DNA from: Anaerolineales bacterium
Lineage (GTDB): Bacteria > Chloroflexota > Anaerolineae > B4-G1 > SLSP01
Length of the DNA: 37,586 nt
Assembly: GCA_046541755.1 (NCBI GenBank)
Contig: JBKHCQ010000002.1
Span: 1 to 37,586, forward strand
Direction of reading: 5' to 3'
Both the position numbers and the translations under genes were made by a program. Positions 9,068 to 37,207 of this stretch are shown here, in pieces. The notes beneath the pieces are model-generated. The model was given only the letters and a program-made list of their open reading frames with translations. It was not told the origin of the DNA and made no database searches. Within the stretch, counting starts at the first letter, position 1; each line of letters starts with the position of its first letter.

Positions 9068-9090
9068 AATAACATCCTCATCTGATCGCG

Positions 9091-10110: not shown

Positions 10111-10139
10111 AGAGGGAAACCTCCAATCCGCACAGTAAA

Positions 10140-14476: not shown

Positions 14477-14485
14477 ACGCGCCCC

Positions 14486-15703: not shown

Positions 15704-15730
15704 GCTTTCCCTTCCTTTGCAGCTTCTCGC

Positions 15731-15770
15731 ATCTTGCCTTATCTCGCCTCATCTTGCCTTATCTTGCCCC
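15731..15770. repeat. Four phased 10-bp direct repeats (ATCTYGCCYY) in an 81-bp intergenic gap
   Basis: atcttgcctt/atctcgcctc/atcttgcctt/atcttgcccc read directly from the sequence. Lies between stop 15785 and start 15703. Confidence 0.8.
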
Positions 15771-15784
15771 TCATCACGCGCGCG

Positions 15785-16831: not shown

Positions 16832-16837
16832 TCCTCT

Positions 16838-16915
16838 CTTAGGCAGTTCCAGGAATCAAAACCTCCCCAACCGGATGTTTTTCCTCGGAAAACGGCTTAC
16901 TTTTGGGAGATTTAT
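16838..16915 (-). repeat. Dispersed ~79-nt intergenic repeat, family 3 (copy a); hairpin followed by a U-rich tract
   Basis: Aligns with 30117-30195. Minus strand: ATAAATCTCCCAAAAG...GGTTGGGGAGGTTTTGATTCCTGGAACTGCCTAAG. Both copies start within 30 nt after a minus-strand stop codon. Confidence 0.7.
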
Positions 16916-16943
16916 TCTCTTGGAACGGCCTTATTATTTCTCC

Positions 16944-17966
16944 CTATTTTTGAACTACTGTCAGCAACTGACGCGCTTTCTCCCACCACTCCTGGCGTCG
17001 AATGGTCTGGAGTGCGCGCATCTCGGCCCGAAATCGCGGTAGATCATCCTGCATCTCCAACAGGGCCTCTCGAATGCCCGGGGCGGTGTTATCGATATGA
17101 AGCGTTCCTTGGTTAAAGTAGGTTTCGAGCACCGGCCCCTGGGATGTGATGAGGGGTTTGCCTAACCACAGTGCTTCGTTGGCGCCGCTGAGGAATTGAT
17201 AATCCTCGACGCACAAATCCATCATCACATCGGCGGCCTCTAAAAGGGAAAAGAAGTCCTCTTGCAAGTAGCCGGTGAAGTGGGCGTTTTCCGGCGCGCT
17301 GTCCACGATGGGCTGCCGCGCTCCCGAATAGTCACCGGTGATGTAAAAATGAATCTCCGGCAATTCGCGCGCCGCTTTCAGCACCTCCCGCACCGGCTCA
17401 TCGGGGCTGGCCGAGCTGACCATGACGACGTTCAGGCGGTTCGCGGGCAACGCCAGCGGCTCGGTCACGCGCGGCGCGAGCGGCGGATCCTCCAGGACCA
17501 AGCTGTGCGCGCCCCAATCCATGACCAAATCGCGCAGGTAGTCGTTGGTCACCAGGGTAGTGATCGCCCGGCGCGAGAGGAAGCGGTGCAAGGGCAACGT
17601 CCATTTCCACATAGGATGTAGCAAGGGCGGCGTGTGAGCATCGATGATGAATTTGGCAGGGAAAAACAGACTGTAGATGTACACGGGCAACGCCGCAAAG
17701 ATCGGGGGGTCTTGGATAAATACCAGTTGGTAGCGCGTGCGGATCAGAAAGATGAGCGTGGCGAAAAATTGATAGGGGTATTTGTAGAGCGCGTGGTATT
17801 TTCCCTTTTTGGCCGTGATGTAAATATGCTTCACATCCATCCCCAGGTGCTGCGCGATGATCTGACTTCGCCGCGAGCCATGGGGCGCGCCCCAGACTAG
17901 GAATAAAGCCTTAGCATCTATTTGAATCGACGGTTGAATCGACGGGTCGCTGTTATGCATGGTCAT
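16944..17966 (-). CDS. Glycosyltransferase (GT-B fold, GT4-like)
   Basis: 340 aa. C-terminal ...LSGANEALWLGKPLITSQGPVLETYF resembles the GT-B EX7E region. Overlaps the upstream stop by 14 nt, so translationally coupled. Confidence 0.6.
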   Translation of the reverse strand: MTMHNSDPSIQPSIQIDAKALFLVWGAPHGSRRSQIIAQHLGMDVKHIYITAKKGKYHALYKYPYQFFATLIFLIRTRYQLVFIQDPPIFAALPVYIYSLFFPAKFIIDAHTPPLLHPMWKWTLPLHRFLSRRAITTLVTNDYLRDLVMDWGAHSLVLEDPPLAPRVTEPLALPANRLNVVMVSSASPDEPVREVLKAARELPEIHFYITGDYSGARQPIVDSAPENAHFTGYLQEDFFSLLEAADVMMDLCVEDYQFLSGANEALWLGKPLITSQGPVLETYFNQGTLHIDNTAPGIREALLEMQDDLPRFRAEMRALQTIRRQEWWEKARQLLTVVQK

Positions 17967-18912
17967 CTTCCATCCAGATATTGCCCAAATATTGCGCGGT
18001 ATAGTCTCCCACGGTCATAAATACGACATCAGGAAACGAAGCCATATAAGCCAACAACTCTCGCGTATACTCGATCATCATCTGCCCGCTGGCGCGATAG
18101 AATAGGTTGCGCAATCGCAGCCCGTGCGCGCGGATGAACGAGGGCTTGAAATACTCCGGCTCGATGAAGTCTCGCCATTGTTTCCAGCCCCCCCCGCCCC
18201 CGCCGCTCACAAACTCGGCCGGATGCGCCAGGTAGACGATGGGTTTGCCCGTATGATGGGATTCTATGTACAGTAATCTAAACAGAATTTTTAACATGCC
18301 CACGCTAAAGATCCTGAGTAGCGTGGAGATAAAGGGCGCTCCGGTCGCCGAGACCGGCGCCTCCCAAATGGGCATGTCGCCGGCCCGAAAGACATTATCC
18401 GCGCGCGGACGATAGGGACGGCGCGGCGCGAAGACCCATCCCAGGTTGATGAGATTTGAGCTGACGAAATCTATCCTCTGAGAGCAGACCGAGCTATCGA
18501 CCCGGTAACCGTGTTCGACCAACACCTTCATCGTCGGTGCCCCGACCTTCACACGCGGGGCGCGAAACGCCTGGATCGGGACGCCGGTCACGGCTTGCAG
18601 TTGCTCGGTGGCCTGTCCGATGTACGCGCGCTGCATCGCCTCCGGCATTTGATCGTAGTTCTCCTCGGTGCCGTGGGTCAAGCCGTGACAACCCACCTCG
18701 TGGCCTTGATGTTGCATCCTCGCAATCTCATCGCGATAGGCTTCCGCCGCCGTCGCCGTGACGAAGAAAGTCGCGCGGATCTCATGTCGCCGGCACAGAT
18801 CCATTGCCGTTCTCAGCGCCTGCAACCGGTTGTCCAACGGAATCCATTCGTCGGGGTCCGCGTCCCACGTGATGAGTACCGGCACTGTATGAGAGCTAGC
18901 GGGATGGTTCAC
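17953..18912 (-). CDS. Polysaccharide deacetylase (NodB homology domain)
   Basis: 319 aa, GTG start 18912 in a GTGA overlap with the upstream stop. Motifs VLITWDADPDEW, ATFFVTATAAEAY, GHEVGCHGLTHG and FRAPRVKV. Confidence 0.8.
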   Translation of the reverse strand: MNHPASSHTVPVLITWDADPDEWIPLDNRLQALRTAMDLCRRHEIRATFFVTATAAEAYRDEIARMQHQGHEVGCHGLTHGTEENYDQMPEAMQRAYIGQATEQLQAVTGVPIQAFRAPRVKVGAPTMKVLVEHGYRVDSSVCSQRIDFVSSNLINLGWVFAPRRPYRPRADNVFRAGDMPIWEAPVSATGAPFISTLLRIFSVGMLKILFRLLYIESHHTGKPIVYLAHPAEFVSGGGGGGWKQWRDFIEPEYFKPSFIRAHGLRLRNLFYRASGQMMIEYTRELLAYMASFPDVVFMTVGDYTAQYLGNIWMEDDHA

Positions 18913-20138
18913 AAGTATCTCTCGAACAGGTCGCCCAATTTAGCCGCGCTCTTGTAGATGTTGAACTCTTCTACAATTCGCTTCCGCCCATTCTGGCCCA
19001 ACGTCCGGCGCAACGCTGCATCTTCTATCAACCGCTGGAGAGCATCCGCCAACGCCTCCGCGTCCTTTTCCGGCACGAGCAGGCCGCTCACGCCGTCCTC
19101 GATCAACTCCGGGATGCCCGACACATCGGTGGAGACGGCGGCGATTTCCATCGCCATCGCCTCCATCAGCGAGACCGGGATGCCGTCCACATCGTTGTTG
19201 CGCGCCGTGATGCACGGCAGCGCGAAGATGTCCGCGCGTTCCAGGTACGGGCGCAGATCCTCTTGAAAGACGGCGCCGGGCAATTCGAACGATGCTTGCA
19301 GGTCATATTTCTCAACCAGGTGATCCACAAGCGGCTTCTCAGGGCCGTCGCCGATCAAGGCGCAGTGGAAGGGCACGCCGCGCTCGGCCAAAATCCGGCA
19401 TGCTTCCACCAAGAAAGGCGCGCCTTTGCGCTCCGCCAACTGCGCGACGAAGAGAATCAGCGGGATATCGTTGTCGGGTCGCGCATCGGGCGGCGAAAAA
19501 TCGTCCGGCGCGAGGCCGCAGCGAATGATGTGCATCTTGGCCCCTTGCTCCTCCCCGCCCGGCACGAGATCCATCAGAAATTGACGGCTGAACTGGGAGA
19601 TGACGCTGATGAATCGCGCGCCGTGGACTTTTTCCGGCAACAGGACCCGGTCAATAAAGAAGCTGTTGTGCGCCGTGAAGCTGTAGGAAATATCGAGCAG
19701 GCGCGAAATCACCAGCGCGATGGTCGCGGCGTTGATGGCAAAGTGCGCGTGAATGTGCTCGACGTTCAGACGTTGCATCTCGCGGGCCATGCAGATTGCT
19801 TCGCAGAAGTGGAGGAAGGTGCGCCGGCGATGTGAGATGCTCTCCCCTGGCCGGGTCAACACGAACCACAACGTCTTGAGGTATCGAGCCGGTCGGGTGA
19901 AGAGAAAATGCAAGTGCGCGCCGATGAAATCGGCCCACCGGATGGGTAGAACATAGAAGGTGCTATCCACCAGATGGCGCGATTCCAGCGAGAGCTTGTC
20001 CTTGACGGGTTTCCAGATGGCAAACGTTTCGATGTTGAACCCTCTTTCCTGCAAGGCGAACACTTCCCGGTACACGAACGACTCGGTCAGCGCCGGGAAA
20101 ATATGAGAGACATAGGCGACGGTCTTTTGTGAGTTCAT
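18909..20138 (-). CDS. Glycosyltransferase family 4 (WcaL-like)
   Basis: Track ORF 18909-20144, trimmed to ATG 20138 (ATGA overlap with upstream stop 20135-20137; GAGGGGTGGGG upstream). N-terminus VAYVSHIFPALTESFVYREVFALQERGF. C-terminal ...PCITARNNDVDGIPVSLMEAMAMEIAAVSTDVSGIPELIEDGVSGLLV. Confidence 0.8.
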   Translation of the reverse strand: MNSQKTVAYVSHIFPALTESFVYREVFALQERGFNIETFAIWKPVKDKLSLESRHLVDSTFYVLPIRWADFIGAHLHFLFTRPARYLKTLWFVLTRPGESISHRRRTFLHFCEAICMAREMQRLNVEHIHAHFAINAATIALVISRLLDISYSFTAHNSFFIDRVLLPEKVHGARFISVISQFSRQFLMDLVPGGEEQGAKMHIIRCGLAPDDFSPPDARPDNDIPLILFVAQLAERKGAPFLVEACRILAERGVPFHCALIGDGPEKPLVDHLVEKYDLQASFELPGAVFQEDLRPYLERADIFALPCITARNNDVDGIPVSLMEAMAMEIAAVSTDVSGIPELIEDGVSGLLVPEKDAEALADALQRLIEDAALRRTLGQNGRKRIVEEFNIYKSAAKLGDLFERYL

Positions 20139-21421
20139 CCCCACCCCTCTTTTCGACCTCTATTGGGTTGTTTCGCCAATGGCGGCTTGATCAACCAGCC
20201 GGCATCTCCTCCGTCGGCGGACTGGATCGCTTCCTCGATCCAGAACAGGGGAAGTTTATAGCCACTCAACACCTTACAGCCGAGGCAATACACGGATGCG
20301 CCCTGATGACATCGCAACCGGTAGACCAGATACCGGCCGCTGCGATACGGCGTGCGCGTTTTGCCGCGCGCCAACGTCGGCACGGGTAGACGCGGCGTAT
20401 GTCGGGCGTCCTGTTTCGGCTGCTTCCCGCCGGGCGCATGCACCATCGAGAGATAGCCGACCTCCTTGGCAATGCGCACCGTCAAGTCGTTGTAGCCTCC
20501 ACCCGGCCAACAGACGAAGTTTACCTTTTTCTGCAAGCGAGCTTCGATGATCTCTTTAGACGCGCCCAGTTCATATCGCACGCGAGCTTGATAGGCTTCC
20601 TCGCTCTCCCAGCTTTCCTCAAGTTGATGTCGCGAGCGATAGTGTCGCACCCACTGGAAAAGGCGCGGCCGCCAGCCGCGCTCCTGGAACAGCGCCGGGC
20701 CGCCGCGCGCCTCGACCTGGCGGATTAAAAAATCTGCCAATTTGGGATCCGGGAAATATCGGCGGGCCAGCAATGATTTTCGATAGGTGTAGATAGGCGT
20801 CCCGAAGGGGACAAACGAGGATTGGTCTTCATTGAGCCACAGATATTTGCGCTCCGGTTTGGCATTCCATGCCAGCCAGGGGTAGCCATCCTGGGGATGG
20901 TGAAAATCCACGATATGATGATCGTTAAAGTACCAGGTGTGCGTGATGGTGTGGGATTGCACATCCATCACCCCGGCAGATTCCATCTCCGCTAACTCCG
21001 TCCAAGATAAAAAACCGGTGGTTTCCAAATCCCGCGCCGCGCCGCGTCCCGCTGCTGCATCATCCGAATTAAGACGTCGGGTATCTCTGGGATCGACAAA
21101 GTCTGGGTTGATGAAAATCGTCCCTTCGCAACCGTAACGTTTGAGGATCGGGTAGGCGTACACCCAGTTATCGAGGTATCCATCATCGAATGTGAGTACG
21201 ATCGGATTGGGGGGGAGGGGAGCATCATGCGCCAGATGATCGTACAGATGTTGGAGCGAGATTGTCGTAAAGTTGTGATTGACCAGCGCGCGCACGTGAT
21301 CCTCAAACACGCCCACCGGACACGAGAGATTGCCCCACAACCACTGCTGGTTATCTGAAACGCTGTGATACATCAGCACGGGGACGTGGATTTTGATGTC
21401 GATCGCGGGAGATTTTGCCAT
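20135..21421 (-). CDS. Polysaccharide deacetylase (NodB homology domain plus C-terminal extension)
   Basis: Track ORF 20135-21427 (TTG), trimmed to ATG 21421, 3 nt after the upstream stop. Motifs VPVLMYHSV, IVLTFDDGYLDNW and GTIFINPDFV. Confidence 0.8.
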   Translation of the reverse strand: MAKSPAIDIKIHVPVLMYHSVSDNQQWLWGNLSCPVGVFEDHVRALVNHNFTTISLQHLYDHLAHDAPLPPNPIVLTFDDGYLDNWVYAYPILKRYGCEGTIFINPDFVDPRDTRRLNSDDAAAGRGAARDLETTGFLSWTELAEMESAGVMDVQSHTITHTWYFNDHHIVDFHHPQDGYPWLAWNAKPERKYLWLNEDQSSFVPFGTPIYTYRKSLLARRYFPDPKLADFLIRQVEARGGPALFQERGWRPRLFQWVRHYRSRHQLEESWESEEAYQARVRYELGASKEIIEARLQKKVNFVCWPGGGYNDLTVRIAKEVGYLSMVHAPGGKQPKQDARHTPRLPVPTLARGKTRTPYRSGRYLVYRLRCHQGASVYCLGCKVLSGYKLPLFWIEEAIQSADGGDAGWLIKPPLAKQPNRGRKEGWG

Positions 21422-21423
21422 AA

Positions 21424-22644
21424 TCAAGCCTCGTCTAACGAATGATGGTACAGAGATAGATGTTCGTCCACCTGCACTTGCGCGCTAAACGCCGCCGTTG
21501 CCCGTCGCTTACCCGCCAACCCCATCGCTTGCGCCCGCTGAGGATCGGATAAAAGCTGTGATATCGCCGCCGTGAGTTGCGGAACATCGCCAGGCGGCGT
21601 CAGGCGTCCCATCTCCTCCGAGGTGATGACCTGCACAGTACCGGAGACCTCGGAGGCCACCACCGGCAATCCCGTGGCCAGTGCTTCCAAGAGCGCCATT
21701 GAAAGCCCCTCCCACAAAGAGGGGAGCACGAAGAGATCGCTGGCGGCCAGCAGCGCCGGCACGTCGCGGCGGCTGCCCAAAAAGTGGATGTGCGCATCCA
21801 CATGTAACGCCGCCGCCTGCGACTTCAAGGCCTCCCGCAAAGCGCCATCGCCGATGAAGAGTGCATGCGCGGATGGATGGCGCGCCACAATGGCCGGCAT
21901 CGCCTGGATCATGTACGGGTGTCCTTTGCCTTCTTTCAACGTGCCGACGAGCGCAATCAGACGCGCGGTCTCTTCCAAGCCCAGCTCGCTGCGGATCCCC
22001 GTTGGATCGCCGGGTCGTTCGTACTGCTCAATATCCACCCCGTTACAGATGACGATGACTTTACCGGGAACGGGACGGATGGTCTCCGTGATGGCGTCCC
22101 CCACCTGATCCGAAACCGCGATGAAGCCATCGACGAACCGGGAGGCCCATTTATATAGCAGGTGATGGACAAATCGTTTTGGCCCTAGCAGCCACGTGTG
22201 GCCGGCGAGGTCGGTTTTCGCCAACCTAAATTGGGCGCTGTGAAAGGTCCAGAAAACGGCGCGGACGGCGGTGGTGTACTTGAGAAGTAAGACGAGAAAA
22301 TCGAGCGTGCGCAACAAATGGGTCTGCACCACATCGATGTCATATTGCCGGACGATTTGGGTCAACGCTCGCCAGATACGCATCATATCGCCCAGGAACC
22401 AGGGGAAGGCCAACACGCTGTAGCGACGATCGGGCAGGATATGCACGTCAATGCCCAATTGTTCTATATCCCGCCGCAAGGGGCCATCTTTAAAAGAGCA
22501 GACGACGGGCCGGGCCGCCGGCGCATTCATCGCATTCATGTATTTCACCAGCGTCCGCACGACCTCCTGGGCGCCGCCGATGTTCAGATCTCCAATAATC
22601 TGCAAGACGTTAAGCGATCGTCCACGGCCCTGTGAGGCTGTCAT
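21424..22644 (-). CDS. Glycosyltransferase family 4
   Basis: 406 aa. ATG 22644 in an ATGA overlap with upstream stop 22641. Motifs LNVLQIIGDLNIGGAQEVV and ...FVLPSLWEGLSMALLEALATGLPVVASEVSG (EX7E). Confidence 0.85.
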   Translation of the reverse strand: MTASQGRGRSLNVLQIIGDLNIGGAQEVVRTLVKYMNAMNAPAARPVVCSFKDGPLRRDIEQLGIDVHILPDRRYSVLAFPWFLGDMMRIWRALTQIVRQYDIDVVQTHLLRTLDFLVLLLKYTTAVRAVFWTFHSAQFRLAKTDLAGHTWLLGPKRFVHHLLYKWASRFVDGFIAVSDQVGDAITETIRPVPGKVIVICNGVDIEQYERPGDPTGIRSELGLEETARLIALVGTLKEGKGHPYMIQAMPAIVARHPSAHALFIGDGALREALKSQAAALHVDAHIHFLGSRRDVPALLAASDLFVLPSLWEGLSMALLEALATGLPVVASEVSGTVQVITSEEMGRLTPPGDVPQLTAAISQLLSDPQRAQAMGLAGKRRATAAFSAQVQVDEHLSLYHHSLDEA

Positions 22645-24137
22645 CTCGAAAACCCCCCGGTCATCGTATCAGGAGCGAAATGCATGGCCCATCTGCGCGC
22701 CCAATGCGGCAGACCAAAATCTTCGGGCCGGAGGTACGCTTGCACCATATTGGCAACCAAGCCCAGTGAAAACCACCATGTACCGATGGCATGCCAGAAG
22801 AAGCGCGCATCCATAACCTGGGTGGCTATCAGATAGAAGATGATCGATAACCACAGCAGGACGAGCAAGCGCCAACTCCAAAATCCCTCACGCGGCAAGC
22901 GCGGCAACACCTTGATCGTCAACCGTAGCCACCAGAGCACGGCGAAGAATTGGAGGAAAAACCCCACCAGCCCCATCTCCGCCAAAATCGTGAGATAGGT
23001 GTTGTGCGAGGTCCCCTTATTGATGTCCCAATCTGTGGGCGCGGCACTCCCCACGCGGACCATAAATTTCCAATCGTAACGATCATAGTTGCCGAATCCC
23101 CATCCCCATAAAGGTTTGGCGTAGAACATTTCGCGTCCGGCGTTCGCCAGGACGATGCGACTATCCACTGTATCCTGGACCCCCAGTCGTTTGAGCGCAA
23201 AAGCGACCTCATCTGCCAATATCGTGCCAGATAGAATCCCCGCTGCCACGATGGTGGTGATCAATAGCAAGGACATTGTCTTGGGATACAGAATCAACAG
23301 TCCCAAGAGGACGGGCGCTGACGCGAGCCAACAGCCGCGCGTAAAGGTCAAAAAAATACAGAACAATCCCAAACAGAAGGTCAAAATTAAGAGCCACCGA
23401 ACGATGTCCGATTGGCGATGCATGGCTTCGTGAAAAATGAAGACCATACACACGATCAGCGTATAAGCATAGGGTGTGGGATTAGTGAATGTGCCGGACA
23501 TCCGCGTGCCCATTCTGGCGATATCCCATATCGGAGGCAATGTCTGAGGCGCATAGCGCCCCCAAAAACCGAGCACAATCTCCCCGACGCAGACGAGGAA
23601 CATCGGCAGCACTAACCGCCTCATATCCTCCGCGCCGGGACGCAGGACCCGCACCAACCAATACGCGGCGAACGACACAAACATTCGATCATACAGCTCA
23701 TACAGGTAGATGAGCGGGGAGCTTCGCGTCAGCAGGACAGAAACTCCGGCTACGACGAGATACATCACCATCGAAAGCTCCGCCCATCCCACCTTCACCG
23801 GCTTGTACGCTTTGACCTCCAATGCCCGCGCTAGAATGGCCAATCCCATCGCCAAGGGAATCAAAGCGCGATGGACGAGCCAAAAGACGCGCGATCCGAC
23901 CGTCTCGAAGGGCAAGAACGGCATCAGCACAAACCAGACGATAACGCTCAGCCATGGATAATGATTGAGCAACATCCCCGCCGGCGCGGCGAAGAGGACA
24001 CCCAAGGCGAGCAGCCAAGAGCCTCTGGCGAGCAGCAGGGCGACCAACAAGCCTAATATTCCCCCAAGTAATAGAGGGATGCCAGAGGCTAAAAAACCCC
24101 TATTCCAAAGTTTCCGCATTTCTCTCTCAAAATTCAT
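22641..24137 (-). CDS. O-antigen ligase family membrane protein (probable Wzy-type polymerase)
   Basis: 498 aa, polytopic. Large loop with ...NKGTSHNTYLTILAEMGLVGFFLQFF, typical of the Wzy_C/O-antigen-ligase domain. Confidence 0.75.
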   Translation of the reverse strand: MNFEREMRKLWNRGFLASGIPLLLGGILGLLVALLLARGSWLLALGVLFAAPAGMLLNHYPWLSVIVWFVLMPFLPFETVGSRVFWLVHRALIPLAMGLAILARALEVKAYKPVKVGWAELSMVMYLVVAGVSVLLTRSSPLIYLYELYDRMFVSFAAYWLVRVLRPGAEDMRRLVLPMFLVCVGEIVLGFWGRYAPQTLPPIWDIARMGTRMSGTFTNPTPYAYTLIVCMVFIFHEAMHRQSDIVRWLLILTFCLGLFCIFLTFTRGCWLASAPVLLGLLILYPKTMSLLLITTIVAAGILSGTILADEVAFALKRLGVQDTVDSRIVLANAGREMFYAKPLWGWGFGNYDRYDWKFMVRVGSAAPTDWDINKGTSHNTYLTILAEMGLVGFFLQFFAVLWWLRLTIKVLPRLPREGFWSWRLLVLLWLSIIFYLIATQVMDARFFWHAIGTWWFSLGLVANMVQAYLRPEDFGLPHWARRWAMHFAPDTMTGGFSR

Positions 24138-24154: not shown

Positions 24155-25759
24155 CTATGAGGATATTCGCTCAAAGAGCTGGGATAACGCCGGGATGCGG
24201 CTGACGCGCTCTCGCAAACGCTCCACAACCATCTGATCCTCCTTAGAGAGACCGAGCATCAGCAAAGCGCTGACATAGGTGAACAACAAAATGCCCGCGC
24301 CGATAATCGTTCCCGCCGTTGAATTCCCCGGCAGGAGCCACTGGCGCAGCGCGTACGTGGCCAAAGACGCTAACAAGGCTGCGATCACCGGCTTCACGAA
24401 GCTCCGATTGTACGGTAAGATCCGAAACAAGAAGAACACCTCTAACATCAGCATGAGATTAACGGTAGAAAGACTGATTGTCGTCGCCAGCGCCGCGCCC
24501 ACCACACCCCAGCGCGGGATCAGCCAGAGACTGAGTAGCGCCAGCAGGAGAGATCGCACAGCCGCGTTGAGGATGTTCAGCTTTGTATTGCCCGTCATCG
24601 TGACCATCACGCCGCAAATCCCCACCGCCGCGCCGAACAAATCATTGCCCGCCAAAATGATCAACCCCAGGGAACCGGATACATAGCTGTCGCCAAAAAC
24701 CGAGAGGATAGGACGCGAGAAAAACAGGATCAGCAAAAAGAACGGCAAACTAAAGGTCAGCGTCCATTTGGTCATCGTCTGGAAGAAACGCCTTAATTTT
24801 TGCATATCCCCGCCCGCGTGCAGTTCTGATACCACAGGCATGGACATCATACTGATCGAAGTGTAAAAGGCCGTGCTGACCATGCTCACGCGCGAAGCGA
24901 CGGTGAAGACGCCGGCCGAGGCGACGGTGCTGAGCGCTCCTAACAGCAGGATGCGAAGGTTAGGCCCCAACATCAACAGAAGCTCCGAAAGATAGACTGG
25001 CAACGAGAAATGCAACATCCGGCGCGCATGCCGGCGGCTCACGCGGAGCGGGCGGTTGAGCGGAAATAGCTTGTTCACAAAATAGAGCAGCAGCCCACAG
25101 GATGCTATCGCCCCCATGGAGTAGACCGTCATCGCCTTGACAGCGGTCAATCCCGTGAACGCCAACCCGACAATCAAGAACAGCTTCAAGTAGGTTTGGA
25201 GGATGTTTTGCGCGATGACGCTATATTCCACGCGCTTGAACCCCAGGAGCACAAAACTCGCCACCGTCGCTAAAGTTCCGGCGGGCACGGCAATCGCGAC
25301 GATGCGCAAGAGGGGCACCAAGCTCGGCTCGCGAAATATGATCTCCGCCAGCGGCGCAGCCAATCCAAAACAGAGCAACCCGCCCAGCAAGCTAATCAGC
25401 AGCGGCAGGCCCCCGCCAATCTGGATCGTTTGCCATAACGCTTCGCGATCCCGTTCTGCCGCAAACATCGAGATGAAATGCGTCGTCCCGGTGTTGAGGC
25501 CCAACAAGGCGACGCCCACGACGATGTAAAAGGTAGAATCCGCCACGCTGTATAACCCGTATTGTTCATCTCCCAATAGGCGCGCCAACAAAAACCCGAG
25601 GATGAACCGCCCCGCATACTCCAGCATCGTGCCGATAAAAGAGAGGCTCCCGCCCTTGGCCACCGTCAAGATATTCTGATCCGACGCTGATGATCCAACG
25701 TCAGAATTTTCGTCCAGGAATTTCTCCGGTTGGGATACGGAGGCGTCAGTTATCGTCAT
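24155..25759 (-). CDS. MOP-superfamily polysaccharide flippase (Wzx-like)
   Basis: Track ORF 24155-25852, trimmed to ATG 25759 (ATGA overlap with upstream stop 25756-25758). 534 aa, polytopic, with N-terminal ...VAKGGSLSFIGTMLEYAGRFILGFLLARLLG, typical of the Polysacc_synt family. Confidence 0.8.
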   Translation of the reverse strand: MTITDASVSQPEKFLDENSDVGSSASDQNILTVAKGGSLSFIGTMLEYAGRFILGFLLARLLGDEQYGLYSVADSTFYIVVGVALLGLNTGTTHFISMFAAERDREALWQTIQIGGGLPLLISLLGGLLCFGLAAPLAEIIFREPSLVPLLRIVAIAVPAGTLATVASFVLLGFKRVEYSVIAQNILQTYLKLFLIVGLAFTGLTAVKAMTVYSMGAIASCGLLLYFVNKLFPLNRPLRVSRRHARRMLHFSLPVYLSELLLMLGPNLRILLLGALSTVASAGVFTVASRVSMVSTAFYTSISMMSMPVVSELHAGGDMQKLRRFFQTMTKWTLTFSLPFFLLILFFSRPILSVFGDSYVSGSLGLIILAGNDLFGAAVGICGVMVTMTGNTKLNILNAAVRSLLLALLSLWLIPRWGVVGAALATTISLSTVNLMLMLEVFFLFRILPYNRSFVKPVIAALLASLATYALRQWLLPGNSTAGTIIGAGILLFTYVSALLMLGLSKEDQMVVERLRERVSRIPALSQLFERISS

Positions 25760-28527
25760 GGGGCTTGTGCTCGTCTTCGAGATTGCCGCCAGGCAATACC
25801 CAAAATAGCGCAGAGGGCCAGCCCCGCTGCAATCACCAGGGGAATTAGCCACCCTGGACGACTCACAGCCTCATCCTCCAAAGAAATCTGAGGCGCAATC
25901 TCGGTCGCGGCGGATGGCTCAGGGGCGACCGTGGGGGAAGCCGTGGGATCGCGCGCCGTCGCAGTGGACGTCACGACCTCCGACTCAGAGAGACTCGGCC
26001 CGGTGGTTTGCACATAGTCATCGCCGAACCTCCGCGTATCGACCGTACTAACCGCCCCATCCTTAATCAACGCCAGATTTCCGTTCAAAGCCCAGGATTG
26101 ATGCATCAACACATCCGCGGCCTGCTGCACCCCCTCATCTGTCGTGCCGGTCACGGCCAACAGAGCGCGCGACGCATGCCAAGGCGAAACCATAAGCTGG
26201 ATATATCCCAAACTCGCATTCGAGGGGAAGCGCAACGTCACCCAATCCAACTTCTGCGCGATCACATCCGAGTTCGGCAAGAAAGGCTGCGGCAGTTGAT
26301 TATGTACCTCTTGCAACACGCGGTTCCGCGAAGGTCGCCCTACCGCAATGATATGATGCGCGCTCAACATCGCTGCGGCATCCGGCATGCCCAACGTCAC
26401 CGCCGGCGCGAAACTAAGCCCCCCAGAGGCCTCGCCCAGCATCGCGGCCAACCGCAACGCAGAATCCCACACCTCGCTCTGAGGGCTTTCGGGCAGCGCA
26501 AAGAGCACGTCGGTCAAATCCGGGCGCAGATCAAAAGGATGCGAGAAGAACTTCAGATCCAACACCTGCTCATCGCGCACCGAGTGCTCCAAGTGCAACG
26601 CGGATGTGCTAATGACGCGCAACCAGACATTCGCGTATGCGCACTCGTCCACCGGGAACAGCTCAGACTCTACAGAAATAAGATTAAGCTCGCCATTGCG
26701 GACGAGGGAAAGCGGCAGCACCACATCCACCCGCCCCGCCAACGCGGTTTGAGCGCTGAGCGCGATGGTGGCGATGGTCTCATGGTTAAGGGCCACACTC
26801 AGCGATGATCGATCATAATCTAGGTTCTGGGCATGTCGAAAGGACAGGCTCAGCGTGATCTCGTCGGTGAGATGCCAGCCCACGGGGATATCGAAGTAAT
26901 AGCTGACCCTATCGCTGAATCCATCCAGCATCCCATCTTCATATCCCAAATCGGCTAAGGTCATCTCGGCCCGGGGGGAAATTTGAGGGCGTTCCAATCC
27001 GACGGACGGGCCGCGCACCACTGCATGCGCCCCCGTCAGGCCGGGGAAGCGATTCCGGGAACTTATGGCCCGACTCGCCAGGGCAACCGCCTCATCATGC
27101 AATCCAGTGAGAATCAAAATCGCCTTCGATGGTTCCCAAGGAGATACGAGCATCTGCACCACGCCGTCATACTCCGCAACCCCGCGCCCTTCTTGCACGA
27201 AAAAGTAATCGGATGGGGGGCGCGAGCGCTTTATATTGCCCGCCGTGCCCGCTTCGATTTCTGAAGGCGCGCTCGTGCTCACGGTCGTCGTCAAGGTGCT
27301 CACATTCACCGGATGATCGCGCGCATCGAGCAAGGTCGCCGTGTTCTCCACCATAGCCGCGGTCAGCGCATCGCTCGCGCGCAACACCAACTCCCGATTG
27401 ATCGTCGCCCCCGGAGATAAGGAGGGCAACTCCCAAGCGACCTCTCCCGTCGCTAACTCAACGCAGGCCGGCAAGCAGCGTGTGAATTGTGTGGGGGTCA
27501 GGATCGCATTCACCAGCGAGAAAGATGCGATATGGTCATCCGTCGTATTCGTCACTGTCAAGGTATACGTCAACAGCGCGCCCGGCGCGACGGAGATTGG
27601 CCCCTGAGTGGTCAGGTGCAGTTGCCGCTCCTGCAAGGCGAGCGGCAGAGCGTCTAGCTCATTAAGCGCCCCTATCACTTTGTTGCGCTCTGGCGTGCCG
27701 ACCACAATCCAATGCTCGTACGGCAACGCTGCGCCCTGCGCCGCGATGCGTTCCAGCAGCTCCCCATCGGTCGTGCCGCTAATCAGCACTCCATACGTCA
27801 GCGCGCCCAATCTGGCAGATGTCGCCGCCGCGCCCGCCAACTCCGCCGCCGAGGGATGATCAGGCAACACGAACTGGACGCGATCGGGTGCCACAGCGTT
27901 CTGATAAAAGGGCCGTGGATAAAGCGCCAAGTCCACCTCGATAGGGCGTTGTTCGTAGGCGAGTGCGAAGAAGGAGGTGGCATGGATGGTCGAATATGCA
28001 TTGTGTGGGATGCCGCAGATATAGCTCGCGTCCAAGATCACTTTGATGGTATGCGAGCGTGATGGCAAGGTGTTGAACACCGAGGGCGGCAAATCGATGC
28101 GCAGACGAGCGTGTTCCGCCGCTGCATCATCAATGGGGGCGATGTGCAGAACTTCCCCATCCAACGTGATGATGAGATTCCCAAAAGAAATTGGCTCGAC
28201 GGGTCTCGCTAGGGGATCTGCCGAATGATAGGTATAGCTAAAATCCAGCTCCAAAAAGCTCCCCGCCTGAAGATGCCACCCTTCAGGCAGTCGTAGCGTA
28301 TAATCCGTCGTACTATACGGGCTGCGCAACGTCCTCTCGCCGTATTGCAGATCAGATAGTGCAATCTGCACGCCGGGAAAGGCATCGTCAGGCGGATCAT
28401 GGCTCTCTTGCGCCTCCGTAGAAGAATAAAAAACGCCCAGAACTAGCCAGGTCAGCAAAACCCAAAATATCACAACGCTTCCGATGCGGACGCTGCCCCT
28501 GGATCTCCGCTTTCTCTGCTCACTCAT
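25756..28527 (-). CDS. BcsB-like (cellulose-synthase subunit B family) two-module extracytoplasmic protein with C-terminal TM anchor and an inserted DUF11-like domain
   Basis: Track ORF trimmed from GTG 28566 to ATG 28527 (GGAG upstream). N-terminal signal/anchor VVIFWVLLTWLVLGVF. Module 1: IALSDLQYGERTLRSPYSTTDYTLRLPEGWHLQAGSFLELDFSYTYHS...NLIITLDGEVL...ICGIPHNAYSTIHATSFFALAYE...DLALYPRPFY...HWIVVGTP. Module 2: MTLADLGYEDGMLDGFSDRVSYYFDIPVGWHL...LSLSFRHA...SSLSVALNHETIATI...ECAYANVWLRVISTSALHLEH...LKFFSHPFDL...HHIIAVGRP. Two ...VSPW(E/H)(P/A)S(K/R)A(I/L)L..TG...E(A/G)V..A(S/A) flavodoxin-like ends. LTYTLTVTNTTDD insert between the modules. C-terminal TM GWLIPLVIAAGLALCAILGIAW-RQSRRR. This pattern matches BcsB as I recall it from E. 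coli. Confidence 0.75.
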   Translation of the reverse strand: MSEQRKRRSRGSVRIGSVVIFWVLLTWLVLGVFYSSTEAQESHDPPDDAFPGVQIALSDLQYGERTLRSPYSTTDYTLRLPEGWHLQAGSFLELDFSYTYHSADPLARPVEPISFGNLIITLDGEVLHIAPIDDAAAEHARLRIDLPPSVFNTLPSRSHTIKVILDASYICGIPHNAYSTIHATSFFALAYEQRPIEVDLALYPRPFYQNAVAPDRVQFVLPDHPSAAELAGAAATSARLGALTYGVLISGTTDGELLERIAAQGAALPYEHWIVVGTPERNKVIGALNELDALPLALQERQLHLTTQGPISVAPGALLTYTLTVTNTTDDHIASFSLVNAILTPTQFTRCLPACVELATGEVAWELPSLSPGATINRELVLRASDALTAAMVENTATLLDARDHPVNVSTLTTTVSTSAPSEIEAGTAGNIKRSRPPSDYFFVQEGRGVAEYDGVVQMLVSPWEPSKAILILTGLHDEAVALASRAISSRNRFPGLTGAHAVVRGPSVGLERPQISPRAEMTLADLGYEDGMLDGFSDRVSYYFDIPVGWHLTDEITLSLSFRHAQNLDYDRSSLSVALNHETIATIALSAQTALAGRVDVVLPLSLVRNGELNLISVESELFPVDECAYANVWLRVISTSALHLEHSVRDEQVLDLKFFSHPFDLRPDLTDVLFALPESPQSEVWDSALRLAAMLGEASGGLSFAPAVTLGMPDAAAMLSAHHIIAVGRPSRNRVLQEVHNQLPQPFLPNSDVIAQKLDWVTLRFPSNASLGYIQLMVSPWHASRALLAVTGTTDEGVQQAADVLMHQSWALNGNLALIKDGAVSTVDTRRFGDDYVQTTGPSLSESEVVTSTATARDPTASPTVAPEPSAATEIAPQISLEDEAVSRPGWLIPLVIAAGLALCAILGIAWRQSRRRAQAP

Positions 28528-28542
28528 CTTAATCACTCCATT

Positions 28543-28575
28543 ACTTAGACGGCACTTAGACGGCACTTAGACGGC
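28543..28575. repeat. Perfect 11-bp x3 tandem repeat (acttagacggc) spanning the stop codon of the Wzz-GGDEF gene
   Basis: Read directly from the sequence. Minus strand is (GCCGTCTAAGT)x3, and the first unit supplies Ala-Val-TAA of the upstream gene. Confidence 0.95.
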
Positions 28576-29694
28576 CAGGATCTCCGCCGTTGAACTGCTG
28601 ATCGCGCCAGAGACCGACTCTGAACGCTGCAAGGATTTCTCGGCTTGGGCCAGAAACTCCTCGGGACTCAACTGATTACGTTGATAGGTCGCAACCGCGG
28701 CTCTGCAATTCAAGTCGAGGGCTCCGCCCCCCCTTTCCAATTTGAAGGACATCGAGGTTATCCCCATCTGCAACTCCTCGATAAAGCTCTCAGCCTCTTC
28801 CTTCCGCAGGTCGGGGAGGAGTATGGCGAACACGGTACCCTTCGTCCGCGCTATCACATCCTCCGTCCGTATATGGCGCATCAAGAACATGGCCGCCCGG
28901 CGGATCACCGCGCTTTGCTCCTGCGGCGAAGAGAGCGCTTCGATTTCCCGGGCGCGATCGATATCGATGCAGGCCAAACTCAAGGCATACGCATTACGCT
29001 CAGCGCGGGCCATCTCCTCCTCTAATCGCTGTTTTAAGAAAGTTCTGTTATATACGCCACTTTCCTCATCCAGGATATTAAACTCGGTTGGGGAGCGCAA
29101 GGGAATTTGGAGGTATTCCAAGAAGAACGCCAATCCGCAGCCCAGCGCCAATCCGAACACCGCGCCCAAGGCTACCTGCATTTTTTCATTGCGCGCCACT
29201 TGATACCCCTCTTCGGGCGCGGAGTCGAGAAGATTCAGATTATAAATTCCCTGAAGCTCTTGAAGATCTTTAACATAGGCCACGGTCTCATCGCCAATCG
29301 TGTTAGCCAAAAGGGAGACGCTTTCGCGATTCCGGCCCTGAACCGTGATTTTCAACAGGTTTGTCCCCGACAAAGGGTAAGCATCAATCGAGAAATACGC
29401 CATTTGGGACATGGATAATCCCAACTTATCCGCCACCCGCCCGCGAACTAAGCGGCTCAGGGCTATTTCCGCGTAAGTGTTACCGATCTCGGTCTGCCGA
29501 CTTAAAATATCGACCCCGTACACCACGCTGCCGGCGAGAGAGGGATTAGGCACGATGACAAAGGTGACGGTGGCTTCGTAAATCGGGGGCTGCATGAATG
29601 TAAATACGATCGTGGCAGTTAAGGTGATCACGAAAACAGATAAGACGATCCACCACTTTCGCAACAGAATCAGCATATAGATCTTCAGTTCCAT
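28567..29694 (-). CDS. Wzz/PCP-type polysaccharide co-polymerase fused to a degenerate GGDEF domain with intact RxxD I-site (predicted c-di-GMP receptor)
   Basis: Track ORF 28567-29790, trimmed to ATG 29694 (the upstream part lies in a dispersed repeat). 375 aa. Wzz N-terminus ELKIYMLILLRKWWIVLSVFVITLTATIVFTFMQPPIYEATVTFVIV. TM2 MQVALGAVFGLALGCGLAFFLEYL. Then DEESGVYNRTFL...LACIDIDRAREIEA...HIRTEDVIARTKGTVFAILLPD. Confidence 0.8.
   Translation of the reverse strand: MELKIYMLILLRKWWIVLSVFVITLTATIVFTFMQPPIYEATVTFVIVPNPSLAGSVVYGVDILSRQTEIGNTYAEIALSRLVRGRVADKLGLSMSQMAYFSIDAYPLSGTNLLKITVQGRNRESVSLLANTIGDETVAYVKDLQELQGIYNLNLLDSAPEEGYQVARNEKMQVALGAVFGLALGCGLAFFLEYLQIPLRSPTEFNILDEESGVYNRTFLKQRLEEEMARAERNAYALSLACIDIDRAREIEALSSPQEQSAVIRRAAMFLMRHIRTEDVIARTKGTVFAILLPDLRKEEAESFIEELQMGITSMSFKLERGGGALDLNCRAAVATYQRNQLSPEEFLAQAEKSLQRSESVSGAISSSTAEILAV
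28600..29082 (-). other. Degenerate GGDEF domain: active-site position KGTVF (28828-28842), I-site RTED (28858-28869)
   Basis: Gapless by-eye alignment to the PleD GGDEF domain. There are 29 residues between IDID and RxxD in both, and RxxD is followed by 5 residues and then the GG(D/E)EF position. The FKxxND stretch is replaced by AREIEA. Confidence 0.75.
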
Positions 29695-29989
29695 CTCTTC
29701 ACCTGGCCTCCCAAACATTTCTAGGGCTTTGGGATTTCGCCGGACAATTCCCCCAGCGATCCTGACAACCACTATCCCCGTACACAACACAAACTTCGGA
29801 AGCTGTCAGGTCATATCCACCAGTAGCGATGACGATGTCATCGCCTATCGAGGGGGGGATATACCTCACAAACCTCCGAAGTTTGTCGAGGATCTATGAC
29901 CTCCGCACCTATCTTAACGATCAAGAACAACTGCGCGACTCAAAAATCAAAACGATCCGTTACGCTCGTCCTTTCCGTAAGTAGGGCAA
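29695..29989 (-). promoter_or_regulatory. Long structured 5' leader of the Wzz-GGDEF / BcsB-like operon segment
   Basis: Perfect 12-bp inverted repeat 29789-29800 / 29875-29886. Inner 8-bp hairpin 29826-29833 / 29837-29844. A further 8-bp pair, 29808-29815 / 29895-29902, crosses the first (alternative fold or pseudoknot). No ORF in the region. Confidence 0.45.
29725..29790. repeat. Dispersed intergenic repeat, family 2 (copy b, partial)
   Basis: GGCTTTGGGATTTCGCCGGACAATTCCCCCAGCGATCCTGACAACC aligns with 5582-5625 and 31526-31560. Confidence 0.6.
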
Positions 29990-30017
29990 AGTGTACAATG
30001 TTTGCTAATTAACGCAA
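29990..30017 (-). promoter_or_regulatory. Candidate sigma70-type promoter TTGCGT-N16-TACACT
   Basis: Minus strand: TTGCGT (30012-30017), 16-nt spacer, TACACT (29990-29995). Lies immediately downstream of the 14-bp repeat array. Confidence 0.4.
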
Positions 30018-30032
30018 ACGTTATCTCCTTTC

Positions 30033-30094
30033 CATCAACACTTTCACATCAACACTTTCACATCAACACTTTCACATCAACACTTTCACATCAA
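30033..30094. repeat. Tandem 14-bp direct repeat, 4 full copies plus 6 nt (catcaacactttca)
   Basis: Read directly: units at 30033, 30047, 30061 and 30075, partial at 30089-30094. Perfect copies. Confidence 0.95.
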
Positions 30095-30204: not shown

Positions 30205-30885
30205 CTACAGGGCGCCGGCGCCAGAGAAGACCGAAAGAGCCGTCAACCACAAGATTTTCAAATCGAGCCACAAGCAGCAATCTTCCACATATTCTACGTC
30301 GTGATGAGCAATGTCATCGAAGGAAATCGTGCTGCGCCCCATAACCTGCGCTAATCCTGTGATGCCGGGCAGGACGTTCAGGCGTTGATAGTGCCACGGC
30401 TCGTAAGCTTCTACTTCCCAAGGAACGTTGGGCCGTGGCCCGACGATGCTCATCTCGCCCCGCAGCACATTGATGATCTGAGGCAGCTCATCCAAGCTGG
30501 TCTTGCGCAAGATCGCCCCTACCTTGGTGATCTGAGAAGCTTTGATCGGCTTGAAAATCGTGTGGCCCTCTTCAATCTTCCCTTCAACTTCCCCCTTCAC
30601 AAACGCCTGCATATACGCCCGGTGCTCGCGGTCATCCAAATTGTGCTGCATAGTGCGAAATTTAAACATTCGGAATGGATTCCCATCCTTCCCGATGCGC
30701 TCCTGAATGAAAAACGCCGGGCCGGGAGAATCCAATCGAATGGCCACCGCACACACAGCCATCACAGGTAGCAAAACAGGCAATAGCAAAAGACAAATCA
30801 CCCAATCGAAAAGCCGTTTAGCTACCTCGTATGGCCTTGGATAAGACCATACCTTTGTTTGTTGTTGAATAAAAACCGAGTCCAT
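30205..30885 (-). CDS. Bacterial sugar transferase (initiating polyprenyl-phosphate glycosyl-1-phosphate transferase, small monotopic PGT)
   Basis: Track ORF (TTG 30903) trimmed to ATG 30885, with AAGGAGG 6 nt upstream. Motifs KRLFDWVICLLLLPVLLPVMAVCAVAIRLDSPGPAFFIQERIGKDGNPFRMFKFRTM, DELPQIINVLRGEMSIVGPRP and LPGITGLAQV are hallmark Bac_transf motifs. 226 aa. Confidence 0.9.
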   Translation of the reverse strand: MDSVFIQQQTKVWSYPRPYEVAKRLFDWVICLLLLPVLLPVMAVCAVAIRLDSPGPAFFIQERIGKDGNPFRMFKFRTMQHNLDDREHRAYMQAFVKGEVEGKIEEGHTIFKPIKASQITKVGAILRKTSLDELPQIINVLRGEMSIVGPRPNVPWEVEAYEPWHYQRLNVLPGITGLAQVMGRSTISFDDIAHHDVEYVEDCCLWLDLKILWLTALSVFSGAGAL

Positions 30886-31108
30886 GGTACCCTCCTTTCG
30901 CAAAACAACACTTGACTCTCCTGAAAAACAAAGATCTCAAAAGTGGTTCCCGCGCTCACCTGAGCTTTTTCAGTAGAGCCGACTGAAATGGCGAAAAACC
31001 TCCTTTCACCTAGCGTATCGACAGCCCAAATTCATCGAACTGCCCATACGTGCGTCTCTGCCTCCCCCCTACTGACTGAATTTTACAAAAAATGTATGAA
31101 GAGCGAGT

Positions 31109-36021: not shown

Positions 36022-37110
36022 TCACTTCGACCGGCCCAGGCGATCCAAAAAGCCCAGTAGGCCGGAGCGGTGTTGCACCTCGCGGGGGTATAGCTCCACG
36101 CGATAGGCCATAATAGGATCATCTAAACCGCGCACTTGGGAGGCGAATTCGCGGATGCGATAGCCCATCAGGCGCGCGGGCACCTCCGGTTGCGCGTAGC
36201 TCGCCTCCGTGAGCACGATTTCCTCGCCGCGCGCCAAGTTGCTCACGCGCGAGGCGGTGTTGACCGTCGTCCCGAAATAGTCCAGGCGATTGTTCAACGT
36301 CACCACGATGGCCGGGCCGGTGTGAATGCCGATCTTCAAGCGGAGGCAACGATCATCGTCCAGCCCTTTCGCCTCATTGAACTCCCGCAGCATCCGGTTG
36401 ACGCGCAGCGACGCATCGACCGCGTCGACCGTGTGCGAGAAGACGCCCATCACACCGTCGCCCATCGTCTTGACGATGGCGCCCTCGGCCCCTTGGACGG
36501 CCTCGCCCACCAGTCCAAAGTGCTCGCGCACCAACTGGTAGGCGAAGGGATCGCCGTTGCGGGCGTAGAGCGCCGTGCTCCCGGTGAGATCGGAGAACCA
36601 GATCGTCATCTGGCTGACCTCCAGGTGCTCATCGGGCGCGAGCGGCTCATTCTGCGCCCAATCTCGAAAGCGCTGGATGGTCATCAACTCATGCACTGTG
36701 GTCGGCCCGTACTGCTGGCGCACCTGGGCGCGATAGTCGGGATCATCCGCCGCCTCGTCCAAATCGCGGATATTCGGGTGCGGCGAGAAGGTCACCTGCG
36801 CCTCGTGATCCACGTGGACGGTGAAATCGGCCCCGCACGCGCCGCACGTCGTATCCGTGATCGCCGTCTGGAACACATCGCCAATCTCCGCGAAGGCATT
36901 GCAGAACGGACACTCCAACTCCCAATGCATCTTCGCCGCGCCATCGAACATCAATCCCACCAGAGCCTCCAGCGCGATCCGCTGCGGGATCTCCAACGCA
37001 TCCGCCACATGCTTGGGGAGGGCATGGTAGACATCGCGCGGCGCGGCCTCCAACAGATACGACCGCACTCTCTCGTAAGGTAAAACGCGACTGCTGGGAG
37101 CTTCGGCCAT
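36022..37110 (-). CDS. Class III adenylate/guanylate cyclase with N-terminal CxxC...CxxC zinc-ribbon-like domain
   Basis: Track ORF trimmed to ATG 37110 (AAGGAGG upstream). Cyclase core TIWFSDLTGSTALY...KTMGDGVMGVF...LKIGIHTGPAIV...DYFGTTVNTASRV. N-terminal ECPFCNAF...TTCGACGADF. Confidence 0.85.
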   Translation of the reverse strand: MAEAPSSRVLPYERVRSYLLEAAPRDVYHALPKHVADALEIPQRIALEALVGLMFDGAAKMHWELECPFCNAFAEIGDVFQTAITDTTCGACGADFTVHVDHEAQVTFSPHPNIRDLDEAADDPDYRAQVRQQYGPTTVHELMTIQRFRDWAQNEPLAPDEHLEVSQMTIWFSDLTGSTALYARNGDPFAYQLVREHFGLVGEAVQGAEGAIVKTMGDGVMGVFSHTVDAVDASLRVNRMLREFNEAKGLDDDRCLRLKIGIHTGPAIVVTLNNRLDYFGTTVNTASRVSNLARGEEIVLTEASYAQPEVPARLMGYRIREFASQVRGLDDPIMAYRVELYPREVQHRSGLLGFLDRLGRSK

Positions 37111-37162
37111 CTCGCCTCCTTTTCGGGATAAACCGACCAACGCCCGACTCATTTGTCTTCTA

Positions 37163-37191
37163 AGTATAGTTGAAACTCCAACCTCCGTCAA
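37163..37191 (-). promoter_or_regulatory. Candidate sigma70-type promoter TTGACG-N17-TATACT for the cyclase gene
   Basis: Minus strand: TTGACG (37186-37191), 17-nt spacer, TATACT (37163-37168). Lies ~50 nt upstream of ATG 37110. Confidence 0.5.
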
Positions 37192-37207
37192 CGAACCAAC
37201 ACGCAAA

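Follow-up and report, generated by a model that had tools for sequence, protein, structure and literature searches.

Degenerate GGDEF domains that keep an RxxD motif bind dimeric cyclic di-GMP (c-di-GMP) and activate exopolysaccharide (EPS) machines, as described for PelD (PMC8461298) and PssE (PMC4125290). Binding by PssE has a Kd of 0.79 uM, with two ligands per protein (PMC4125290). PelD of Pseudomonas and Bacillus cereus, PssE of Listeria and YdaK of Bacillus subtilis are likened by description: all are membrane-anchored, carry a degenerate GG(D/E)EF active site (A-site) with RxxD, the inhibitory site (I-site), five residues upstream, and are encoded inside an EPS operon. These features recur in the product of a gene at 28567-29694 on the minus strand of a 37,586-nucleotide (nt) stretch of DNA from an Anaerolineales bacterium (Chloroflexota; GenBank assembly GCA_046541755.1, contig JBKHCQ010000002.1, positions 1 to 37,586), the whole of which is called the window here. 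PelD, PssE and YdaK serve synthase-dependent systems, which rely on either a family 2 glycosyltransferase (GT2) synthase or PelF/PelG, and none of the three has a polysaccharide co-polymerase (PCP) as its membrane part. In contrast, the protein described here is a fusion with a Wzz/PCP membrane part, lies in a locus with a phosphoglycosyl transferase (PGT), Wzx and Wzy, and has a glutamate in place of PelD R402. Listeria PssE, like the Anaerolineae fusion genes, neighbors a BcsB-like subunit (PssD) (PMC4125290). The degenerate GGDEF domain of this Wzx/Wzy-pathway PCP, from an Anaerolineales-like member of the Chloroflexota, is probably a c-di-GMP receptor. The protein would couple a known type of I-site receptor GGDEF domain to a known co-polymerase, in a pathway class in which such a coupling is without described precedent.

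The PCPs of types 2a and 2b that work with a bacterial tyrosine kinase (BY-kinase), such as Escherichia coli Wzc or the CapA/CapB and CpsC/CpsD pairs, are the closest systems on the membrane side. They share with the fusion protein a Wzz part with two transmembrane (TM) helices and a cytoplasmic module after TM2, and are likewise encoded with Wzx and Wzy; the short extracytoplasmic domain of the fusion resembles the CpsC type. Unlike these PCPs, the fusion has neither a P-loop nor a Tyr cluster, and genes for a kinase or a phosphatase were not found in the window. Where the BY-kinase PCPs rely on autophosphorylation, the input of the fusion would be a diffusible second messenger. On the cytoplasmic side, PleD and DgcR resemble the fusion protein in their gapless alignment with it, in RxxD and in both secondary I-site arginines. 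They are active enzymes, in which the cross-link switches catalysis off; since the fusion has no catalysis to inhibit, the cross-link itself would be the output.

Direct post-translational control by c-di-GMP in a wzy-type pathway, the role proposed here for the fusion, is described in Caulobacter (PMC11481889, PMC5362036). The holdfast pathway of this bacterium is wzy-type (PMC6372794), and c-di-GMP binds the glycosyltransferase HfsJ (PMC11481889) and the acetyltransferase HfsK (PMC5362036). These receptors are soluble enzymes with non-GGDEF sites and are not the co-polymerase. In reviews on EPS and capsule chain length, direct activation by c-di-GMP is confined to synthase-dependent systems (PMC8461298, PMC12220298, PMC8892547). 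An earlier note on the window, made from its sequence, had likewise placed such control in synthase-dependent systems and not in a domain fused to the co-polymerase of a Wzx/Wzy pathway. The first part was overstated, HfsJ and HfsK being a precedent; the second stands, in that the literature searched yielded no description of a fusion between a PCP/Wzz protein and a GGDEF domain. A search for c-di-GMP binding to Wzc or BY-kinases likewise gave nothing relevant.

The gene and the parts of its product that carry the argument are the following; the protein model was built with AlphaFold2 on the family alignment and has a mean pLDDT (predicted local distance difference test) of 81.8.

28567..29694, minus strand: PCP-GGDEF fusion gene, ATG at 29694 and TAA at 28567-28569, 375 aa beginning MELKIY
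29422..29682, minus strand: match to Wzz (PF02706), aa 5-91, which includes TM1 (Pfam)
29593-29655, minus strand: TM1, aa 14-34 (AlphaFold2 helix)
29182..29592, minus strand: short extracytoplasmic PCP domain of the Gram-positive PCP-2b type, aa 35-171 (AlphaFold2, TIGR01006)
29110..29181, minus strand: TM2, aa 172-195, Gly-rich (G177, G181, G185) (alignment, AlphaFold2)
28621..29073, minus strand: degenerate cytoplasmic GGDEF domain, aa 208-358 (Pfam 2.2e-19, PleD/DgcR alignment, Foldseek)
28996..29028, minus strand: face of helix alpha1 formed by R223, E227, R230 and R233 (gapless alignments)
28858..28869, minus strand: primary I-site motif R276-T-E-D279, equivalent to PleD R359-A-I-D362 and DgcR R206xxD209 (RKSD)
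28828..28842, minus strand: degenerate A-site K285-G-T-V-F289, replacing GG(D/E)EF

Both halves were recognized by Pfam well above the respective cut-offs, Wzz (PF02706) at aa 5-91 with 39.2 bits against 25.5 and GGDEF (PF00990) at aa 208-358 with 70.2 bits against 23.8. The best Foldseek matches in the PDB were GGDEF domains, many in structures with c-di-GMP bound, and against isolated GGDEF domains the target TM-scores (structural similarity) were 0.8-0.89 with a root-mean-square deviation of ∼2 Å. With HMMER, ∼155 residues align to PleD (1w25, 2wb4) and DgcR (6zxm) without a gap. In this register K285-G-T-V-F289 falls on the A-site, PleD G368-G-E-E-F372 and GGEEF of DgcR, and A248-R-E-I-E-A253 on the substrate stretch F-K-K-I-N-D of PleD. 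S261 takes the place of PleD D344, which binds guanine, and E359 that of K442, which binds phosphate. The A-site, the metal-binding Asp, the guanine-binding Asn/Asp and the phosphate-binding Lys are all substituted throughout the family, and the positions equivalent to PleD N335, D344, K442, R446 and E370/E371 are both substituted and unconserved. Judged by these replacements, the domain is catalytically dead. Five residues separate D279 from K285, which places RxxD upstream of the A-site.

The open reading frame (ORF) on the minus strand runs over 28567..29790 if read from a GTG, and the ATG at 29694 yields the protein of 375 aa. Among 36 homologues in the family alignment, 32 have their N-terminus at MELK or the equivalent residue; in P0002, P0006, P0034 and P0051, the remaining four, the gene call extends the protein by 2-20 residues. 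The GTG at 29790 was ruled out as the start by these N-termini and by its position inside a conserved non-coding hairpin, and they also rule out a downstream start that would separate Wzz from GGDEF. The start at ATG 29694, and with it a genuine fusion of two domains, follows from the matching homologue N-termini and the non-coding setting of the GTG.

The earlier note had anticipated most of this architecture: a Pfam result with Wzz N-terminal and GGDEF C-terminal; a classic Wzz N-terminus with TM1, then a short extracytoplasmic segment (∼135 aa in the model) and TM2; a gapless GGDEF alignment with KGTVF for GG(D/E)EF and AREIEA for FKxxND; RTED at 28858-28869, five residues ahead of the A-site in the register of the I-site; and Wzz and GGDEF fused behind a start at 29694. 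Each of these points was confirmed, by the Pfam scores, by the model (helices 14-34 and 170-196), by the PleD and DgcR alignments or by the shared start of the homologues. Its view that cyclase activity is very unlikely also holds, with the catalytic residues substituted and GG[DE]EF in none of 162 full-length family members.

Of the 232 sequences fetched, 162 are full length, which puts the family at no fewer than this number of complete proteins, spread over several classes of Chloroflexota. Conservation was ranked over 153 positions of the degenerate GGDEF domain in 105 non-redundant members (<60% identity). The top ranks include E227 (1st), R230 (2nd), R223 (3rd), D279 (5th) and R276 (9th), and E278 stands at rank 18. 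The A-site residues rank between 25 and 113, the FKxxND stretch between 87 and 139, and the equivalent of the guanine-binding D344 is last at 153. RxxD is retained in 140 of the 162 full-length members, in which the A-site is nearly random in sequence. R230 is 96% conserved, and position 233 is Arg in 131 of the 162.

These arginines align with those of the secondary I-sites, R230 corresponding to PleD R313 and R233 to DgcR R163. In the cyclases, c-di-GMP dimers cross-link RxxD of one GGDEF domain to PleD R313 or DgcR R163 of another, and GGDEF domains in general are enriched in Arg at either of the two positions (PMC8041772). The fusion protein carries Arg at both. The ranking indicates that the primary I-site RxxD is under selection and that the conserved remainder of the domain is the set that holds c-di-GMP in solved complexes of cyclases with their product.

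Several observations weigh against a c-di-GMP receptor acting on a co-polymerase. The third primary I-site residue, PleD R390 (DgcR R237), corresponds to E307; the position ranks 135 of 153 and is Lys or Arg in only 28 of the 105 non-redundant members. The same unconserved Glu307 stands at the position of PelD R402, which is absolutely required in PelD (PMC8461298). In DgcR the equivalent of R390 does not contact the ligand, and inhibition still occurs with a Ki of ∼150 nM (PMC8041772). The domain owes both RxxD and the arginines of alpha1 to its GGDEF ancestry, and folding or a protein contact, rather than ligand binding, could account for their conservation. No diguanylate cyclase or phosphodiesterase gene was found in the window ORFs scanned. 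On the membrane side, the family has a PCP motif before TM2, with P162, P165 and P168 in 81%–95% of members together with G181 and G185. In the fusion protein E162, Q165 and R168 replace the three prolines (∼29191-29211) and the glycines are kept; in its closest relatives most or all three prolines are also replaced, P0002 retaining P165. With these prolines lost, the co-polymerase activity of the fusion may be atypical.

Conservation through protein contact is also the core of the main alternative explanation, that the domain is a nucleotide-independent scaffold for oligomerization or docking, recruiting the initiating transferase, the family 4 glycosyltransferase (GT4) enzymes or Wzx/Wzy. 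RxxD and the Arg/Glu face of alpha1 would then be a protein-protein interface or structural. Degenerate GGDEF domains that serve purely as interaction modules exist, CsrD being an example, and CsrD is among the weak NCBIfam matches of the fusion protein. The three best-conserved residues, E227, R230 and R223, share one face of alpha1, and the invariant E227 is without a known role in c-di-GMP binding, so that the face could be a protein interface. The unconserved equivalent of R390 points the same way. Nevertheless, RxxD and both secondary-site arginines have been kept together, in a domain whose remaining functional GGDEF residues have decayed, and the EPS-associated degenerate GGDEF domains that keep RxxD and were compared here (PelD, PssE and BcsE) all bind c-di-GMP. 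We therefore regard a pure scaffold as unlikely.

A GGDEF domain that senses another nucleotide, such as (p)ppGpp, GTP or a different cyclic dinucleotide, and couples EPS assembly to it would fit the Foldseek matches to PleD with ppGpp or pppGpp plus c-di-GMP (9g85, 9g86), since these structures indicate that a GGDEF domain can accommodate further guanine nucleotides. In some degenerate GGDEF domains the A-site binds GTP. In the present family all A-site and GTP-contact positions are substituted and unconserved, which disfavors GTP binding at the A-site, and the residues that are conserved are those of the c-di-GMP I-sites. Sensing of another nucleotide is accordingly very improbable. The reading given in public annotation, an active diguanylate cyclase, has on its side the automatic NCBI and JGI names and the significant match to the GGDEF hidden Markov model. 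It can be dismissed almost with certainty: the A-site reads KGTVF, and the residues that would bind metal, guanine and phosphate are absent. This candidate was ruled out, as no catalytic residues are left and none of the 162 full-length members carries the canonical motif.

What the degenerate GGDEF domain has displaced can be seen in the sister PCPs. Among the profile matches listed, several of the top ones cover the Wzz half alone yet measure 437-676 aa. In five of these (P0213, P0214, P0216, P0226 and P0185) Pfam finds a P-loop domain of the ParA/AAA_31 type after TM2, and the sequences contain Walker A (GEGKS), A′ and B boxes. The C-terminal Tyr cluster is clear in P0213, P0214 and P0216 (e.g., SSSYYYSGY), weaker in P0185 and not recognizable in P0226. 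In the fusion protein, neither a match to a P-loop family (Pfam, NCBIfam) nor a C-terminal Tyr cluster was found. The Wzz halves of the five are 36%–43% identical to that of the fusion protein, and those of the distant GGDEF-bearing members P0064, P0060 and P0065 are 31%–39% identical, so that the kinase-bearing sisters are as close in this half as distant members of the family itself. Because sister PCPs with the same Wzz half carry a BY-kinase after TM2, the degenerate GGDEF domain takes the BY-kinase position on the same Wzz scaffold. The earlier note had assigned it to the place where PCP-2a proteins carry a BY-kinase, and the Walker A/B boxes that follow the related Wzz halves bear this out. 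P0157 and P0168 carry a LysM module on the scaffold, and the C-terminal modules of P0157, P0168, P0213, P0214 and P0185 include LysM, a BY-kinase with GAF and a BY-kinase with a helix-hairpin-helix. In Chloroflexota, the part behind TM2 looks like a hot spot of module exchange.

A mechanism can be sketched for the candidate c-di-GMP receptor. PCPs act as rings of protomers. In work by electron cryomicroscopy, Wzc-type PCP rings are reported to have their assembly set by the phosphorylation state of the cytoplasmic domain. In the fusion protein, c-di-GMP would be held by R276 and D279 and would bridge to R230 and R233 of the adjacent protomer, as in the link between primary and secondary I-sites of PleD and DgcR. 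Intercalated c-di-GMP dimers would staple neighboring cytoplasmic GGDEF domains together, and the cross-link would lock the PCP in a given oligomeric or active state. A PCP fixed in this state would license Wzy polymerization and export when c-di-GMP is high. The BcsB-like protein, borrowed from synthase systems, might act together with it in some lineages. Occupancy by c-di-GMP would thus take over from the cycle of Tyr phosphorylation that controls oligomerization of Wzc-type PCPs. We put forward only tentatively, and with some doubt, that the PCP ring is switched by c-di-GMP in place of Tyr autophosphorylation, with Wzy polymerization and chain length gated directly through cross-linking of the degenerate GGDEF domains.

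If correct, this would be the first co-polymerase gated by a second messenger, and direct gating by c-di-GMP would extend beyond synthase-dependent EPS machines and reach a Wzx/Wzy co-polymerase. The exchange would also amount to a natural experiment in which the cytoplasmic module of a PCP is an exchangeable oligomerization switch. That a putative c-di-GMP receptor domain stands in for a kinase on one and the same type of Wzz scaffold suggests that this module is a generic switch of oligomerization or activity. The fusion bears on what the module does, how PCPs control Wzy and why many of them need a kinase cycle. R276, D279, R230 and R233 are positions for point mutants by which the proposal can be tested. 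The result corrects a systematic misannotation as well: members of the family are labeled "diguanylate cyclase" in public databases (NCBI, JGI), another automatic name being "protein tyrosine kinase modulator".

The family is widespread, as assessed with an exhaustive profile search over 1.84 billion cluster representatives (50% identity). At E≤1e-30, 574 representatives match, and most of the 150 matches listed span both halves. A word-indexed search gave ∼64 clusters (90% identity) that share the length and the Wzz-GGDEF architecture of the fusion. Genomes were scanned with family-specific peptide patterns from the closer subset of the 36-sequence alignment; as the patterns are specific to the family, Wzz-GGDEF fusions in other phyla would be missed. 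Thirteen related loci were obtained, from metagenome-assembled genomes (MAGs) labeled Anaerolineales, Anaerolineae, Caldilinea aerophila, Roseiflexaceae and Chloroflexia. Some relatives are assigned to a cultured species, in the MAGs labeled Caldilinea aerophila. An Anaerolineales MAG is the closest relative; its fusion protein is 76% and its PGT 85% identical to those of the window.

The PCP character of the N-terminal half is also apparent from other matches. TIGR01006, the CpsC-type PCP model of NCBIfam, matches aa 5-200 at 5.4e-14 with a score far under the cut-off of the model; PDB chains of E. coli Wzc match aa 9-128 at ∼3.6e-4, and Pfam gives a weak match to GNVR ahead of TM2. In the AlphaFold2 model, the long helices 14-34 and 170-196 were taken as TM1 and TM2. 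The segment of ∼135 aa between them has an alpha/beta base and one helix of 26 residues, and a short disordered linker (198-205) leads from TM2 to the GGDEF fold.

The genes that place the fusion in a Wzx/Wzy pathway lie on the same strand around it.

30205..30903, minus strand: small Bac_transf PGT, initiating the pathway, upstream gene (Pfam 2.4e-61)
25756..28527, minus strand: BcsB-like protein of ∼920 aa, downstream gene (Pfam BcsB PF03170, 7.7e-42)
24155..25852, minus strand: Wzx-type flippase, Polysacc_synt / MatE (Pfam)
22641..24137, minus strand: Wzy-type polymerase, Wzy_C (Pfam, synteny)

Further minus-strand genes of the locus encode three GT4 enzymes, three family 4 carbohydrate esterase (CE4) deacetylases, a NosD-type beta-helix protein and FemAB/GNAT-type acyltransferases. 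The order PGT, PCP-GGDEF, (BcsB-like), Wzx, Wzy recurs across the 13 related loci: Wzx is present in 11, Wzy in nine, and a PGT upstream of the fusion gene in nine. Where Wzx, Wzy or the PGT is missing, the sequence ends or there is no match, as for Wzx in L008 and L013. Neither a GT2 synthase nor PelF/PelG was found among the locus ORFs scanned with Pfam. With this result, and with PGT, Wzx and Wzy all encoded there, a synthase-dependent EPS system was ruled out. Among the Pfam-scanned ORFs, which included all long minus-strand ORFs of the locus and left out several overlapping, mostly plus-strand, ORFs of at least 150 aa, no BY-kinase or P-loop domain was found. Both statements of the earlier note about the surroundings, a Wzx/Wzy-type locus and no BY-kinase encoded in it, agree with these results.

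BcsB is regarded as a subunit of synthase systems. In the Anaerolineae-type loci a BcsB-like gene lies directly 3′ of the fusion gene, namely in the window and in the following five related loci.

L001, 6774-9476: BcsB-like gene
L006, 4920-7565: BcsB-like gene
L007, 9254-11779: BcsB-like gene
L008, 9265-11814: BcsB-like gene
L013, 1003-3561: BcsB-like gene

The BcsB-like protein of the window has a hydrophobic stretch at both ends, an N-terminal signal or anchor and a C-terminal TM helix, and a sequence search of the PDB gave no match to it at E≤0.01. The L002 and L003 clusters, which hold the distant member P0064, are without a BcsB-like gene and have a NusG paralogue upstream; in them Wzx is separated from Wzy by five or six genes for sulfotransferases. 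Their content implies a sulfated EPS, which would be under the control of the PCP-GGDEF protein.

Downstream in the window, an operon-like array on the minus strand (13172-21427 and 8432-12824) contains the three CE4 deacetylases, the NosD/CASH beta-helix protein (894 aa) and the FemAB/GNAT-type acyltransferases. The presence of these deacetylases and acyltransferases suggests that the polymer is partly de-N-acetylated and possibly acylated. For the ORFs 15785-16831 and 16944-17966, Pfam gave no match. At the left end of the window, ∼3 kb (840-3760) contain no ORF of at least 150 aa with a family match and no Rfam match; elsewhere, 36022-37206 encodes a class III adenylate/guanylate cyclase.

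The DNA flanking the fusion gene has two unusual elements. A perfect tandem repeat of three 11-nt units at 28543-28575 (GCCGTCTAAGT on the minus strand) spans the stop codon of the fusion gene and gives TAA in all three frames just ahead of the start of the BcsB-like gene. On the other side, the leader 5′ of the fusion gene is 510 nt long. No known RNA or c-di-GMP riboswitch was found in the window or in this leader by Rfam at the gathering threshold, and at E≤1 there were chance-level matches only, the leader hairpin having no Rfam family. Within the leader, ∼250 nt (29790-30036, minus strand) are 88% identical to L006, the Anaerolineales relative, which exceeds the 76%–85% identity of the flanking proteins. 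The hairpin at 29789-29886 lies in this conserved part and has ∼98 nt, a perfect stem, a folding energy of -53 kcal/mol and a z score of -6.4. It occurs once in the window and, among the related loci, was found only in L006. It may work as an attenuator or operator, or else be a site of processing.

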